49,689 nt of DNA from the sequence record NC_105788.1; one strand, 5' to 3'. The notes below the pieces were generated by a model. It worked only from the letters and a program-made list of their open reading frames with translations, ran no database searches and was not told where the DNA came from. Numbering within the stretch: position 1 is the stretch's first letter; every line of letters starts with the position of its first letter. This stretch comes from a phage. Positions 7,691 through 44,202 of the stretch are shown here, one piece after another. The position numbers and the translations under genes are program-made.

Positions 7691-7867
7691 TTAATCTATC
7701 GCAATAAATTCCAGATAGCTGCCGTTCAGAGGAGCCTGGATTGCTGAACCTCGCCCGTCGTAAATCTCAAATAATCCCCCACCGAAATCATAACCAACAC
7801 TATAGATCTGATTTACGCGGAATGGAAGTGTTTTGGAGTCATTTCGGATGCACTTAACTCGTTTCAT
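7691..7867 (-). CDS. hypothetical small protein (58 aa, below ORF-track cutoff)
   Basis: manual translation MKRVKCIRNDSKTLPFRVNQIY...; AAGAGGA RBS 6 nt upstream; coordinates approximate. Confidence 0.4.
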   Translation of the reverse strand: MKRVKCIRNDSKTLPFRVNQIYSVGYDFGGGLFEIYDGRGSAIQAPLNGSYLEFIAID

Positions 7868-7921
7868 GATATATCCTCTTTGTTTTCGTTGTGGTTACTA
7901 TACCCGAATCCCTTCGGGCGT

Positions 7922-7939
7922 CTTTATCAATTAGTGCGA
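7922..7939 (-). promoter_or_regulatory. degenerate box copy (GCACTAATTGATAAAG) followed by hairpin CCCGAA..TTCGGG and TATAGT
   Basis: resembles box cassettes; overlaps stop codon of 7931..9082. Confidence 0.4.
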
Positions 7940-9082
7940 TCCTGTCATTTCTGGACGATATATGAAACGACCGATTTCCCCAAACTGCTTATCGTAAACA
8001 ATTACCGCCGCCTGGCGATACGATCGCCACCCTCCGCGTGCTGCGTATGCATCTTTCGCGCCTAACTGGCCGTGTACTTCATCAATACCAAGCGAGTGCT
8101 CAGTGATTGTCTGGTGATGCCAGTGACCACTATGAGTATACACATACTTGCTCTCGCCGAAGTCTGATCGGAAATCTGCCGCCATTGCTGCAAGTCTCGT
8201 ATCTGCCTTCTTCATAGTGTGACCGTGAGTGTATCCCAACAAAGTATTTCCCCAACGAGTCTTATGCAGAATCATAGGACTAACATCAACGAATACTCGC
8301 GGCTCGTCTTCATAATATGCCGACATTGCAGCTCGCAGCCAAATCATCCCAGACTGATCGTGGTTCCCTTCGATAACCTGGACCTCGACTTCTTTGTGTT
8401 TCATAAGCATTTTGTCGATGGCGCGACGCACAGAACGAATCGCTACATGCACCAATTTCGCATATCGTGAATCCTGATCCAGAACGTGACCGCTTGCCGG
8501 GGTAACAGCGTCAAGGCCGTCAGAGTGAAGGAAGTCGCCACCGATTAACAGAACAGCCTTCTCTGCGTTCGGCGCAATATCGATCGCGTAATTAAAGAAG
8601 TCGCTAAGCACTTTTTCCGCTACGTCGGTGGAATAGTTCTCACCGCATTCATGCTTATGAGCAAGCGCGCCAATATGGAGATCGAATACCGGATAGAGTG
8701 CCAGCTTACCCATCGCTGTCGTAAGCCCTTGCGAGGTTAGTAGCTCGGTTGGCTTTGCTCGCGGCAGGTCTTCACAGAATGCAATACGCGCCGCTTCCAT
8801 CATTGCCGCAATCTTCTCACGGTCCTGATCGGTTTTAACCCAGCGCACTACCTCGGTCCCATCTCCGCGAATCATCGTTGATGTGCCTTTTACCATGAAT
8901 CCTTCCGGTACGTTCTTAGCAACATGCTCGTTACCGTGGAAGTGGCCTTCTTTTGCCAATTTTGCGTGGCGAGCTTCAACCGTGCGAATGTGCATACCGT
9001 ACTTTTCCGCGATCTCGCGAAGTGTAAGTCCGTTCATGCGTTCTTCGATAAGTTGCTCGGTAGTGATTTTAGATTGTGACAT
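7931..9082 (-). CDS. HTH domain fused to calcineurin-like metallophosphoesterase (Mre11/SbcD-like nuclease or PPP-type phosphatase)
   Basis: N-terminal helix-turn-helix-like segment (LTLREIAEKYGMHIRTVEARHAKL); metallophosphoesterase motifs DLHIG, GGDFLHSD, GNHD, GHTMKK, GHWHH; AAGGA RBS. Confidence 0.65.
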   Translation of the reverse strand: MSQSKITTEQLIEERMNGLTLREIAEKYGMHIRTVEARHAKLAKEGHFHGNEHVAKNVPEGFMVKGTSTMIRGDGTEVVRWVKTDQDREKIAAMMEAARIAFCEDLPRAKPTELLTSQGLTTAMGKLALYPVFDLHIGALAHKHECGENYSTDVAEKVLSDFFNYAIDIAPNAEKAVLLIGGDFLHSDGLDAVTPASGHVLDQDSRYAKLVHVAIRSVRRAIDKMLMKHKEVEVQVIEGNHDQSGMIWLRAAMSAYYEDEPRVFVDVSPMILHKTRWGNTLLGYTHGHTMKKADTRLAAMAADFRSDFGESKYVYTHSGHWHHQTITEHSLGIDEVHGQLGAKDAYAARGGWRSYRQAAVIVYDKQFGEIGRFIYRPEMTGSH

Positions 9083-9160
9083 ATTTTAATCCTTACATGA
9101 TAATGAAATACATTACTGAAAATGAAATTAGCGGTGTTAATACTACAGCAAAATAAAGTC

Positions 9161-9562
9161 TCATGCCACAGCCTTTAACCAGAATCCTAGATCTGAAGAT
9201 TTAAACTCAACCAGTTTTCCATTAACCTCAAGCATCATACTGTTTCTACCTGGTGAGTAATAACCTATATGCAACTCTTGCTCGATCCCAATAGTGCAAA
9301 GCACATTAACGAAGTCAGGAGGCAACCAATCAGAGAAAGGGATTTTCTTAACCTGCTTCTTTCCGATCCATATGGTCTGGTAGTCATCTAAGTTAATGTT
9401 TAAGCCTGGAAGACTTGTTGCTCTTTGCTGTTTTTCGTTCTCGCTCAATTCTCTTTCCTTCTTCACGATAAAATTCAAGTGATGGGGTAGCTGGCACTCT
9501 ATGCATTTTTCTCGGCATATCTTCCATAAATGAAATCTTTCCGTTTGAGATAATGCTAACAT
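9161..9562 (-). CDS. C-terminal frame of a frame-disrupted gene (hypothetical)
   Basis: protein-like ORF with no credible RBS at its own ATG; overlaps 9393..9665 by 170 nt in another frame. Confidence 0.3.
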   Translation of the reverse strand: MLALSQTERFHLWKICREKCIECQLPHHLNFIVKKERELSENEKQQRATSLPGLNINLDDYQTIWIGKKQVKKIPFSDWLPPDFVNVLCTIGIEQELHIGYYSPGRNSMMLEVNGKLVEFKSSDLGFWLKAVA

Positions 9563-9665
9563 CCTTTATATCGAAATATTTTGCTATTAGTGCTATATCG
9601 TCTGAGATTCCGCATTCCTTTGCGTGCTCCCACACTTCGCGCTTACCTTTCTTTTTTATCAGCAT
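9393..9665 (-). CDS. N-terminal frame of a frame-disrupted gene (hypothetical)
   Basis: good GGAGAAA RBS at 9665 start; 3' part looks like out-of-frame readthrough (KR-rich). Confidence 0.35.
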   Translation of the reverse strand: MLIKKKGKREVWEHAKECGISDDIALIAKYFDIKDVSIISNGKISFMEDMPRKMHRVPATPSLEFYREEGKRIERERKTAKSNKSSRLKH

Positions 9666-9928: not shown

Positions 9929-10170
9929 GTGATTATCTCAGAAGAAAGTTCTTCTACGTCTTTTTGGATGATTGAAGGCCAACGCTCGATATATTCATTT
10001 TTTATCTCATCGAAAGACATATCAAGAGAACTGGTGAACTCCCACAGATCGCAACCAATAACATCCTGAGTCAATCCGTTTTGCTCCATAATTTCGCAGC
10101 ACGTAGCGCGATAAAGAAGCCATAAACCTTGCTCAGTTAATTTAACAGGAACCATTTTTTCGCTCATCAT
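9919..10170 (-). CDS. hypothetical protein (83 aa)
   Basis: ATGA overlap with Dam stop; GGTGAGGAAAG RBS. Confidence 0.5.
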   Translation of the reverse strand: MMSEKMVPVKLTEQGLWLLYRATCCEIMEQNGLTQDVIGCDLWEFTSSLDMSFDEIKNEYIERWPSIIQKDVEELSSEIITQH

Positions 10171-10880
10171 ACTTTCCTCACCTTTGCTCGTTTGTTTTTA
10201 ACCGAAGGGCAAATGCTTGTGATTGGGATATAGTGAGTTTGCTGTGTCTCACCCTCTTTAAGTTCGCGCATGATAAAAATTACCGAACCTTTGTTATTAC
10301 CATCTACGGCCTTTCCAGTTTCACCGGATATGAAAGCCAGGCGACCGGATCGTGCGTATTCATTGCCGTCAATATCCTCAGTCAAGTCCGCTTCAATCCA
10401 GATTATTTCAGCTGCGTTCTGTCGCGCCTCAGTAAACCACGCCGTAGAGTTATCTGCAGGTAAAAGCATATCGATCTGATTGTTGTGCTCCATTTGCTCA
10501 ATGGCCTTCTTGACAAATATATCAGGTCGGCTATAAGGAGGATTTAACCAAACGTGCTTATTCTTTCCCCACCAACGTTTTAAGCAGTTTGTTTCCTGAG
10601 AGTAAAACTTCTCGCAAACTTTATTTTCTTCGCTTGCCGCAGCGTCGAGATCATATTTCCCATAACGACCCTCAAGGTATGCAATAACCTCGCGCGGAGT
10701 TGACCATAAATCACGAACAGCGTCAGGGGTATTTGTCCCCTTGTATCGACGCCCTGAAATCTCTTTGCAGGTTGGCGTTTTCAATGCCTGATAATAACCG
10801 CCTGATGCTATTGCTTCGCGAGTGAATGAGCAACCAGTCTCTGCAAAGTCGATGGTTTCAATATCATTAAAGTCTTTCAT
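10167..10880 (-). CDS. dam: DNA N6-adenine methyltransferase (phage Dam-like)
   Basis: WLNPPYS catalytic motif (NPPY); GAGAGGA RBS; preceded by a full box cassette. Confidence 0.75.
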   Translation of the reverse strand: MKDFNDIETIDFAETGCSFTREAIASGGYYQALKTPTCKEISGRRYKGTNTPDAVRDLWSTPREVIAYLEGRYGKYDLDAAASEENKVCEKFYSQETNCLKRWWGKNKHVWLNPPYSRPDIFVKKAIEQMEHNNQIDMLLPADNSTAWFTEARQNAAEIIWIEADLTEDIDGNEYARSGRLAFISGETGKAVDGNNKGSVIFIMRELKEGETQQTHYIPITSICPSVKNKRAKVRKV

Positions 10881-10931: not shown

Positions 10932-10951
10932 GTTTTAACAAAAAGTGCTAT
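10932..10951 (-). promoter_or_regulatory. conserved box (minus strand reads ATAGCACTTTTTGTTAAAAC); cassette nearly identical to 1198-1265
   Basis: box copy overlapping TAG stop of VRR-NUC gene, upstream of Dam. Confidence 0.6.
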
Positions 10952-11364
10952 TTCATTAATTCGTAAATTGCGACCTTGAATTGCTCAAATCCGTATGCGA
11001 CGGCAGGGAAGCCGCCACGCTCACGGACCTTTCGGAGAAATTCCCTTTGCTTGTCGCTGACTGGTGACGCCTTTCCTTTGCCTGACTTATTAACCCGCTT
11101 AAGTTCGATTGCTGCAAACGGGTATCGTGAGTTAACACCAATCAGGATAACAAAGTCTGACACGCCTTTAAGTAATCCGGCCTGCTCATCCCTGAGCGCC
11201 GATGTGATTGTTTTTTCACCTTCATTGACAGTGTGCCAAAATAGAAGGTGAGGAAAATTGTATTTCAGCCAGGATACACAATCCACCTGATGAGCGTCCT
11301 CCTTTCTAGTGTCGCTTGGATCTCTCTCGTAAAATTCTAAATAATCACCTTTGTCTGTAATCAT
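10948..11364 (-). CDS. VRR-NUC domain nuclease
   Basis: PD-(D/E)xK-like arrangement (GVSDFVILIG ... AAIELK); GGAGGA RBS inside helicase 3' end. Confidence 0.6.
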   Translation of the reverse strand: MITDKGDYLEFYERDPSDTRKEDAHQVDCVSWLKYNFPHLLFWHTVNEGEKTITSALRDEQAGLLKGVSDFVILIGVNSRYPFAAIELKRVNKSGKGKASPVSDKQREFLRKVRERGGFPAVAYGFEQFKVAIYELMK

Positions 11365-42893: not shown

Positions 42894-42913
42894 GTTTTAG
42901 CAATTCGTGCTAT
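42894..42913 (-). promoter_or_regulatory. conserved box (minus strand ATAGCACGAATTGCTAAAAC)
   Basis: box copy overlapping TAG stop of kinase gene. Confidence 0.6.
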
Positions 42914-43482
42914 TTGTTGATGAACGTGGCGGCTATGTGCTGAGCGGTAATTTCTGGATGACCTTCGACAGAAAAGAAGTCACATTCCTGATAACCGTTA
43001 ACCCCGATCATGTCGTCAAGATAGATATAGTCTCGGCTGTCGTTATCAAAGCTGCAACCGTTGCGATGGATTCGACATAGCTTAACCTGGATATCACCTT
43101 CAATCATCTGCAAGATCTCATCTTTGAATCCACCGTCAGTAAATACCGAAAGGGAGTGCGACTCTTTCACCTTGCTTTCCGCTCGCATACCGAAGAAGCG
43201 ATTTCCGAACTGCGGCTTGATGACCTCCTCGCTAATCCAGATCATAAACTGGCGCGGGCTTTTACCGTTCAGGATTGATGCTGGCTCTTCTTTATAGCGA
43301 CGGTCCTCATACAAGAACATGAAATACTCAAAATTAGTCTCACCCAGGATTGCTCGGGCAATCTCAAACATTGGAGCTTTAAAGCTGCGTAGAGCTACAT
43401 GATCGTAAGTGTCAGCCAGGATGCACCCTATAGTGTCTTTTCCCGCGCCAGGCGCACCGTTTAAAATGATAGCTGTTTTCAT
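42910..43482 (-). CDS. deoxynucleoside monophosphate kinase (T4 Dnk-like)
   Basis: Walker A LNGAPGAGKDT and LNGKSP block that also occur in T4 Dnk (recalled, not searched). Confidence 0.6.
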   Translation of the reverse strand: MKTAIILNGAPGAGKDTIGCILADTYDHVALRSFKAPMFEIARAILGETNFEYFMFLYEDRRYKEEPASILNGKSPRQFMIWISEEVIKPQFGNRFFGMRAESKVKESHSLSVFTDGGFKDEILQMIEGDIQVKLCRIHRNGCSFDNDSRDYIYLDDMIGVNGYQECDFFSVEGHPEITAQHIAATFINK

Positions 43483-43483
43483 G

Positions 43484-43594
43484 TCAGTATCTCCCTAAAA
43501 ATAATTTCGCCACATTGATGATGGTGGAGTTTATGATTAACAGAATGATAACTGTTAGTACCGGATGTGCTGCAATAAATTCGTATAGGTTCAC
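43484..43594 (-). CDS. tiny hydrophobic peptide (36 aa, GTG start, below ORF-track cutoff)
   Basis: GTGA overlap with phosphatase stop, AAGGAG RBS; predicted single TM helix; coordinates approximate. Confidence 0.3.
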   Translation of the reverse strand: MNLYEFIAAHPVLTVIILLIINSTIINVAKLFLGRY

Positions 43595-44202
43595 TTCAAT
43601 AACTCCTTGCACTTAATGCAAATTTTCTCACCAAATGGCGGTAGCGGCTCAGATGGTTCATGATTGCAAACCTCATCTACCCCGTGAGATTTTAAATGAT
43701 CGTGGACTTTATCGCCATAGTCAACTACAGCATAAGTGGTTATTCCAAGCGACCGGAATAATGGAATAATTTGCGGTGAGTCATCCCATGCCGCCAGAAT
43801 GTTCTCAATGCCGATCGCGCGCACCGCCTCTTCTTTCATTACTGTGTCTTTCCGGTTATCGGTGTGTGGTCGCATAATCAGGTAATCATATCGAGCGCCG
43901 TGATGCTTGAGCCATAACTCAGATGCGTAACGCACCTCATCACTTCGCCCGGTTAAAATGATCACATGATACCCAGCGGCAAACATAGAGTTCATCACTT
44001 CAATCGTACTCTTGATTGGGTTATCAAATATTGCCGCTCGGTTAAACTCTGACCAGCTTTCAGTTAGGTGCAAATCCTTTGTCGGTAGCAGGTGAAGTCT
44101 ACCTGATCCGTCACTAAGTGTCCCGTCAAAGTCAAAGATTGCTACGCGGCGAGTACCGAGAAACAGGTTGATTGTCTGGCCCCAAATGGTAATTTTATCC
44201 AT
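43591..44202 (-). CDS. HAD-superfamily phosphatase
   Basis: N-terminal DFDGTLS (DxDxT) motif; C-terminal Cys cluster; CAATCAGAGGA RBS. Confidence 0.6.
   Translation of the reverse strand: MDKITIWGQTINLFLGTRRVAIFDFDGTLSDGSGRLHLLPTKDLHLTESWSEFNRAAIFDNPIKSTIEVMNSMFAAGYHVIILTGRSDEVRYASELWLKHHGARYDYLIMRPHTDNRKDTVMKEEAVRAIGIENILAAWDDSPQIIPLFRSLGITTYAVVDYGDKVHDHLKSHGVDEVCNHEPSEPLPPFGEKICIKCKELLK

Follow-up and report, generated by a model that had tools for sequence, protein, structure and literature searches.

We report that the gene at 7931..9082 on the minus strand of the phage sequence NC_105788.1 (49,689 nucleotides; hereafter the window, meaning this whole stretch of DNA) encodes a 383-amino-acid (aa) protein in which an N-terminal helix-turn-helix (HTH) segment is joined to a calcineurin-like metallophosphoesterase (MPE) core with a conserved active site and an affinity to nuclease-type MPEs. 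The protein is probably an active phosphodiesterase acting on DNA. Our fuller reading, to which we give a probability of roughly 35–40%, is that it would be an HTH-tethered, Mre11-like DNA nuclease that degrades the host chromosome for nucleotide reuse. A 2024 re-annotation states that T1 and TLS, two phages that carry orthologues of the gene, break down the host genome and put its nucleotides to new use; it describes the responsible early genes as not identified and lists TLS gp66 only as a ‘proof-reading exonuclease’ (PMC11447400). The value of the gene lies in offering a concrete, cheaply testable candidate for this old question of which gene degrades the host chromosome in T1 and TLS.

The gene product and its active site

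The open reading frame (ORF) list holds a 383-aa ORF with an ATG start at exactly 7931..9082. Given that it matches PHROG 704 (‘DNA repair exonuclease’) over its full length (E 1.3e-157; residues 4–380 on profile positions 2–389/390), it is not a chance ORF; PHROG 284 (‘exonuclease’) follows as the second-best functional PHROG family (E 4.9e-13). Homologue alignments span the protein from residue 1–5 to ~380, and the start codon call is therefore right. The first-pass annotation had described this ORF as an HTH domain fused to a complete calcineurin-like MPE. The ORF list and the PHROG 704 match bear out the gene, and the motifs, the structural model and the HTH matches within the family bear out the architecture, which is laid out on the minus strand as follows.

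7931..9082 (−): complete coding sequence, HTH, hairpin/helix and MPE (ORF list, PHROG 704 match, homologues)
9090..9094 (−): Shine-Dalgarno-like AAGGA, 8–12 nt 5′ of the ATG (read from the sequence)
8951..9061 (−): three-helix HTH, residues 8–44, probably LuxR/GerE-like or sigma-70 region 4-like, with a presumed role in DNA binding (model, profile, Pfam matches in relatives)
8774..8911 (−): beta-hairpin (62–71/77–86) and helix (88–103), residues 58–103 (secondary structure of the model, conservation)
7958..8716 (−): MPE catalytic core, residues 123–375
8675..8683 (−): motif I, D134-L-H136, metal ligands (invariant in 114 homologues)
8525..8539 (−): motif II, G182-D183-F-L-H186, bridging Asp and Mre11-like His in fifth position (G182 and D183 invariant, H186 at least 90% conserved)
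8357..8368 (−): motif III, G239-N240-H241-D242, metal-ligand Asn and catalytic His (N240 and H241 invariant)
8225..8227 (−): motif IV, H286, metal ligand (invariant)
8117..8128 (−): motif V, G319-H320-W-H322, metal ligands (G319 and H322 invariant, H320 at least 90% conserved)

The 3-kb stretch around the gene is 100% identical to Escherichia phage CLB_P3 (OL770108; 49,721 bp), whose record labels the gene plain ‘hypothetical protein’, and 92–96% identical to other Tunavirus genomes, among them that of Shigella phage SH6. In essence, the window is thus a whole T1-like (Drexlerviridae) genome. Orthologues of the protein are T1 ST16 (71% identity) and TLS gp66, which carry, as does SH6 gp63, the RefSeq name ‘DNA repair exonuclease’. 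All three belong to the same family over the full length, occupy the same slot upstream of the lysis cassette and show no structural difference from the protein studied here. The family name is itself drawn from remote sequence similarity, and the gene, already catalogued as PHROG 704, is ordinary as a sequence feature.

All five metal-ligand motifs of the calcineurin-like MPE superfamily (PF00149) are present, and the protein has the MPE fold of this superfamily in an AlphaFold2 model built from the family alignment (mean predicted local distance difference test score, pLDDT, 92; predicted template modelling score, pTM, 0.79), which consists of a three-helix HTH, a beta-hairpin, a helix and an alpha/beta MPE core at residues ~123–375. 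The first-pass annotation had listed D-x-H, GDxxD, GNHD and GHxH. The first, third and fourth of these are found in the protein, whereas motif II reads GDFLH and not GDxxD: its fifth residue is His, as in Mre11, with an Asp two residues further on, and it aligns to GDLLHS of the Thermotoga maritima Mre11/SbcD chains when the family profile is compared with PDB sequences. In an alignment of 114 homologues sharing 30–67% identity with the protein, D134, H136, G182, D183, N240, H241, H286, G319 and H322 are invariant, and H186, H320, D188, D202, D204, R206 and D242, among others, are at least 90% conserved. The metal ligands are thus invariant or at least 90% conserved in homologues, as the annotation's proposal implied, and this invariance indicates strong selection on the catalytic centre. 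PF00149 itself was matched (E ≤ 0.01) by only 27 of the 114 members; the family is too divergent for the Pfam MPE model, and its superfamily membership rests on motifs and fold.

In the mechanism that we propose, the enzyme would be a stand-alone DNA nuclease in the Mre11/SbcD/DP1-like branch of the two-metal MPE superfamily. Residues D134, H136, D183, N240, H286, H320 and H322 would form a di-metal centre, presumably Mn2+-loaded, and H241 would serve as the transition-state or leaving-group histidine; the metal centre, H241 and the Mre11-like H186 of motif II would then hydrolyse DNA phosphodiester bonds.

The N-terminal segment probably forms a LuxR/sigma-4-type HTH, in line with the HTH-like segment put forward in the first-pass annotation, and DNA binding is predicted from profile, model and Pfam matches in relatives. 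Its helices (residues 8–16, 21–27 and 32–44) are modelled at pLDDT 94–97, and the N-terminus of the family profile matches the LuxR-type HTH chains of GerE, RhlR and DesR among PDB sequences (E 0.018–0.2, with GerE at 0.018). When the 114 members were scanned individually, HTH_1 was matched by 26, HTH_8 by 21, HTH_50 by 14, Sigma70_r4_2 by 12 (best E 1.5e-9) and GerE by six (best E 2.4e-8). The N-terminal third is more variable than the rest and the HTH is the least conserved part of the protein, with the HTH signature ‘GS...AA..LG’ kept. The hairpin that follows carries the signature KG.STLY..DG....QWVKT, in which G75 and W81 are at least 90% conserved in the homologues; the hairpin-helix element (residues 58–103) had no match to a known family and could have a role in DNA contact or in docking to the core. 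In 3 of 103 loci (L067, L073 and L094), the HTH is swapped for a CxxC...CxxC zinc ribbon (MICPRCG...CGKCG) that precedes the same conserved hairpin and MPE core, which suggests that the N-terminus is an exchangeable nucleic-acid-targeting module. In our proposal, the LuxR/sigma-4-type HTH would tether the enzyme to DNA, and the hairpin-helix element would probably contribute.

Such an HTH could also belong to a regulator that binds promoter DNA or RNA polymerase and helps to shift expression from early genes to late or lysis genes, with the MPE core as a sensor or accessory. The Sigma70_r4_2 and GerE matches among family members are consistent with this, as are the position of the gene directly upstream of late functions (lysis genes here, Q or terminase genes in other members) and the reported interaction of T5 A1, a phage MPE protein considered below, with RNA polymerase (10.64898/2026.04.02.716235). 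However, the family-wide invariance of catalytic residues points to selection for enzymatic activity, and it is the HTH that is least conserved and that gives way to a zinc ribbon in some members. We consider a regulatory protein very improbable.

Relation to known metallophosphoesterases

A search of PDB sequences with the single protein returned nothing meaningful; the family profile alone gave weak but consistent matches, to T. maritima Mre11/SbcD chains and to a bacterial ‘Nuclease MPE’. In hhalign, the family aligned with T4 gp47 over 184 columns running through motifs I–V (probability 68%, E 4.7e-5), and nuclease-type MPEs ranked first by fold and by profile. Given these profile tests, the catalytic domain groups with nuclease-type MPEs, and neither with PPP phosphatases nor with the T5 A1 family. 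Of the two activities between which the first-pass annotation had hedged, nuclease or phosphatase, the former gains from the gp47 alignment, while the lambda phosphatase drops out, as family likeness to lambda NinI (PP-lambda) was rejected at an hhalign probability of 0.6%.

A Ser/Thr/Tyr protein phosphatase resembling NinI would be suggested by genomic position as well as by common superfamily. In eight loci (L058, L090 and six others) a homologue of the antiterminator Q lies immediately downstream of the MPE gene, and lambda (L159 2725..3390) holds NinI, an MPE of the unrelated PPP clade, in the slot before Q, so that two different MPE clades occupy the same nin-like position. On the other hand, the PPP signatures are absent from the protein, which has DLHIG and not GDxHG, GDFLH and not GDxVDRG, and GNHD and not GNHE. 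Together with the hhalign result, this leaves a protein phosphatase barely credible.

The likeness to Mre11, SbcD and T4 gp47 lies in the nuclease domain and comprises five common motifs, including the Mre11-like GDxxH and GNHD. Among NCBIfam models, there was no SbcD/Mre11 match, and the sole MPE-type match was PdeM (TIGR04123), at 12 bits against a cut-off of 150. Where Mre11 and SbcD rely on a cap or a partner, the protein has its N-terminal HTH and hairpin. The PDE domain fold is also common to DP1, the small subunit of PolD and an archaeal proofreading 3′–5′ exonuclease, but DP1 has an OB-fold domain before the core, where our protein has only the two-stranded hairpin (62–86) and one helix, and DP1 works with the catalytic partner DP2, which has no counterpart here; sequence identity between the two is just 12%. 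T1-like phages encode no DNA polymerase (SH6 annotation; PMC11447400).

The comparison with T5 A1 (PHROG 1745), raised in the first-pass annotation, stands solely as a likeness in design. Each is an early phage protein that joins an N-terminal DNA-binding domain, presumed in our case, to a C-terminal nuclease-like MPE. Family membership was rejected, with T5 A1 tested as a single sequence and then as a 36-member A1 family alignment, each of which matched only locally near motif III (hhalign probability 21% over 54 columns for the alignment). T5 A1 matches only phrog_1745, whereas our protein matches phrog_704 and phrog_284 and not 1745. At 556 aa, T5 A1 has ~200 extra residues, and it is pre-early and essential. 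It is described as a putative metallophosphatase with features of double-strand-break-repair and proofreading nucleases, and has been reported as the only factor that is both necessary and sufficient for breaking down host DNA (10.1101/2022.08.27.505566; 10.64898/2026.04.02.716235). The mycobacteriophage A10ZJ24 protein Gp48 is another MPE; it acts as a phosphodiesterase and disrupts the genomic DNA of its host (PMC12287305). These two proteins indicate that a phage MPE-fold protein can be the host-DNA-destroying factor, and T4 gp46/47 (Rad50/Mre11) are needed for both recombination and host-DNA degradation (T4 record annotation).

Relatives of T5 A1 at ~45% identity over ~87% of A1 (P0342, P0344–P0346, P0348, P0372 and P0384) carry differing N-terminal HTH domains (HTH_23, HTH_38, HTH_7 and CENP-B N). 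From these sequences, the A1 family looks as if it reaches beyond Demerecviridae-type proteins, with N-terminal DNA-binding modules that look swappable there too. The Metis preprint was considered as well and set aside, as it concerns a bacterial MPE and HAD defence system and T4 denA, and not the PHROG 704 family.

Gene neighbourhood and possible role

In the CLB_P3-type genome, the order on the minus strand is helicase, VRR-NUC, Dam, three small ORFs of unknown function, the MPE gene, a hairpin, an SH3/DUF7244 gene, holin, endolysin and spanin, with the helicase placed by collinearity with the SH6 and T1 annotations. This order is identical in T1 and SH6. Within the early replication/recombination block, no sizeable gene comes after the MPE gene, which immediately precedes the lysis genes. 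The neighbouring features, together with two possible partner genes located elsewhere in the window, are the following.

10948..11364 (−): VRR-NUC
10167..10880 (−): Dam methylase
7903..7918 (−): GC-rich hairpin CCCGAAGGGATTCGGG with a weak T tract, 13 nt past the MPE stop codon (scan and sequence)
7691..7867 (−): stand-alone SH3-like protein, 58 aa, between the MPE gene and holin (DUF7244, E 2e-28)
43591..44202 (−): HAD-type polynucleotide 3′-phosphatase domain protein, possible partner (HAD_PNKP, E 1.7e-16; PHROG 415)
42910..43482 (−): P-loop deoxynucleoside monophosphate (dNMP)-kinase-like protein, 190 aa, with GAPGAGKDT, possible partner (PHROG 139, E 2.1e-46)

The hairpin could act as an attenuating terminator that separates the MPE gene from the SH3 and lysis genes; in the T1 annotation, a rho-independent terminator occupies the corresponding position. 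An SH3-like gene between the MPE gene and holin is an arrangement recently described for Tunavirus (PMC13164509).

We compared neighbours across 148 loci from viral contigs and bacterial genomes, collected with a profile from a 12-sequence sub-alignment; ORFs were called by a simple longest-ORF heuristic and clustered by all-against-all BLAST. Greedy dereplication at 55% gave 20 lineages, and single linkage at 60% identity gave 14, which was too coarse, so that lineage counts are rough. No universal partner gene of the MPE was found across these loci. The HAD gene stands at +1 from the MPE gene in 4 of the 20 lineages and within five genes in 22 of the 148 loci, and the kinase-like gene stands at +2 in the same four lineages and within five genes in 25 loci. 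Both genes directly follow the MPE gene in Klebsiella T1-like phages, and Kagunavirus K1G has a self-contained MPE-HAD-kinase cassette inserted in its tail module. This neighbourhood has been noted independently (PMC13164509). Endolysin and lysis genes form another recurrent type of neighbour.

The HAD protein, judged by its domain content, is a putative polynucleotide or nucleotide 3′-phosphatase. In relatives the gene is named ‘polynucleotide kinase’ (SH6 gp18, K1G gp21, PHROG 415), a name that looks misleading because the protein has only the PNKP HAD-type phosphatase domain, with the DxDGT motif at FDFDGT, and no P-loop. The kinase-like protein matched no Pfam family above threshold. Proteins with DUF3310 and with a dATP/dGTP diphosphohydrolase N-terminal domain, which act on the nucleotide pool, recur a few genes away from the MPE gene in 4–6 of 111 distant loci (L137, L081 and others), another loose link to nucleotide metabolism.

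We hypothesize that the enzyme, made at the end of the early operon, would break down host chromosomal DNA for nucleotide reuse, and that in many relatives the products would pass to the adjacent HAD 3′-phosphatase and then to the dNMP kinase. A bolder and more doubtful extension is that the PHROG 704 family as a whole could be the missing T1/TLS host-chromosome nuclease, which would make it a counterpart of T5 A1 in function that arose separately within the MPE superfamily. It would then be an HTH-guided, partner-less, Mre11-like DNase whose products are channelled via the linked 3′-phosphatase and dNMP kinase into phage DNA.

The same phosphatase and kinase genes could instead point to a substrate other than DNA. 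The protein might take part in healing RNA or oligonucleotide ends, as a 2′,3′-cyclic phosphodiesterase or 3′-phosphoesterase working with the HAD_PNKP phosphatase and the P-loop kinase, or it might be an anti-defence phosphodiesterase acting on nucleotide second messengers. In favour of this, the gene is linked in several lineages with those for a PNKP-type phosphatase and for a kinase, and the Pnkp RNA-repair enzyme of Clostridium thermocellum uses an MPE-fold phosphoesterase. The presence of a conserved HTH, which a zinc ribbon replaces in some members, nonetheless argues for a nucleic-acid polymer as target over small molecules; the T1-like genome annotation contains no RNA ligase, the protein had no match to PADLOC defence-related models, and nuclease-type MPEs come first by fold and profile. 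A non-DNA substrate therefore appears improbable to us.

Several observations weigh against the HTH-tethered, host-degrading nuclease that we favour. At the level of the protein, the comparison with Pfam models proposed in the first-pass annotation left it below the cut-offs for Metallophos (PF00149, 16.0 bits against a gathering cut-off of 21.5) and for HTH models (Sigma70_r4_2, 15.9 bits against 25.7; HTH_23, 15.4), even though some family members do match HTH models. HTH domains can, moreover, mediate protein contacts too. Ending ~60 residues past motif V, the protein is without the Mre11 capping domain, and it is without the Rad50/SbcC/gp46 ATPase partner that Mre11 and SbcD have: no Rad50/SbcC-type gene was found among the window neighbours, in the full SH6 annotation or in the annotated T1 region. 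In our proposal, the absence of such an ATPase would mean that the HTH stands in as the DNA-targeting device. At the level of the genome, the HAD and kinase genes form a neighbouring pair here, but ~35 kb separates them from the MPE gene, and T1-like phages carry further nucleases that might just as well explain the breakdown of host DNA, namely a RecE-like exonuclease VIII, a VRR-NUC protein and, in some phages, HNH enzymes. Many family members reside in apparent prophages of Proteobacteria, and in proteobacterial genome loci NinB, NinG, a Q homologue or terminase genes lie near the MPE gene; wholesale host-DNA destruction is not expected in such a nin-like or prophage context, where a recombination function fits better. 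The literature searched contained no experimental work on any member of the PHROG 704 family.

Much of this bears on the chief alternative, in which the chemistry is the same and the substrate is phage DNA. The enzyme would serve recombination-dependent replication and concatemer formation by trimming or opening ends, hairpins or branched intermediates, alongside the RecE-like exonuclease, Erf annealase, SSB and the VRR-NUC resolvase, which is what the label ‘DNA repair exonuclease’ means. The place of the gene in the replication/recombination block of T1-like phages, downstream of helicase, VRR-NUC and Dam, speaks for such a role; so do the nin-like regions of prophage members, which include NinB, a recombination mediator, and NinG, a junction endonuclease, and the recombination or repair nucleases that form the closest folds and profile match. 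The occurrence of the family in temperate elements, where host-DNA destruction is unlikely, argues in the same direction. However, Mre11-type enzymes normally need a Rad50/SbcC partner for end processing, and none is present; T1-like phages already encode a RecE/Erf system; and the recurrent linkage to a 3′-phosphatase and dNMP kinase is more simply explained by nucleotide salvage. We regard processing of phage DNA as a possible but somewhat doubtful role.

If the host-DNA role is correct, it would account for how generalized transduction works in T1, point the way to Drexlerviridae that are safer or better suited to transduction and therapy, and provide a minimal model of an Mre11-like nuclease with an HTH in place of Rad50. 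Loss of the gene would then be expected to produce the classical T1 phenotype of high-frequency transduction (Roberts & Drexler 1981, as cited in PMC11447400), and it might either leave the phage open to defences that sense the degradation of genomes or conceal it from them.

Distribution of the family and minor observations

With tblastn, the MPE protein was found in 2,018 phage records, T1 included. The family also occurs in Klebsiella Webervirus, Guernseyvirinae (K1G, SETP13), Casjensviridae (RcAqua), Schitoviridae (EE36phi1), Zobellviridae and many Vibrio phages, and the gene is present in contigs of many alpha-, beta- and gammaproteobacterial genomes. HMMER, run exhaustively against 1.84 billion cluster representatives (clustered at 50% identity), returned 4,647 clusters at E ≤ 1e-3, of which 965 reached E ≤ 1e-30; lengths were mostly 370–420 aa. 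No copy was found in the complete E. coli genomes searched, and plasmids are essentially without the gene, with only five ‘plasmid’ matches. In Drexlerviridae, where the gene is reported to be core, an exonuclease-holin-endolysin-spanin module has been described in 508 of 522 genomes and its gene families termed ‘persistent’ (PMC13164509, 2026).

Near-complete T1-like sequences (61–72% protein identity, ~47–50 kb) were encountered under unlikely labels (H61 CP124687.1, H34 MG065670.1, L088 and L089), namely a Paraclostridium bifermentans ‘plasmid’, Campylobacter phages, and contigs of Nitratidesulfovibrio and of a Bacillota metagenome-assembled genome. These are probably contaminating coliphage or mis-binned DNA, and the reputation of T1 as a laboratory contaminant fits such deposits.

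Finally, a 133-aa ORF lies 5′ of the MPE gene in the window (9161..9562, minus strand), of which only residues 50–133 match PHROGs of unknown function (phrog_4596 and phrog_38834). In this intergenic-looking stretch, the 133-aa ORF overlaps a 90-aa ORF in another frame (9393..9665, minus strand), and the true start and coding frame are uncertain.

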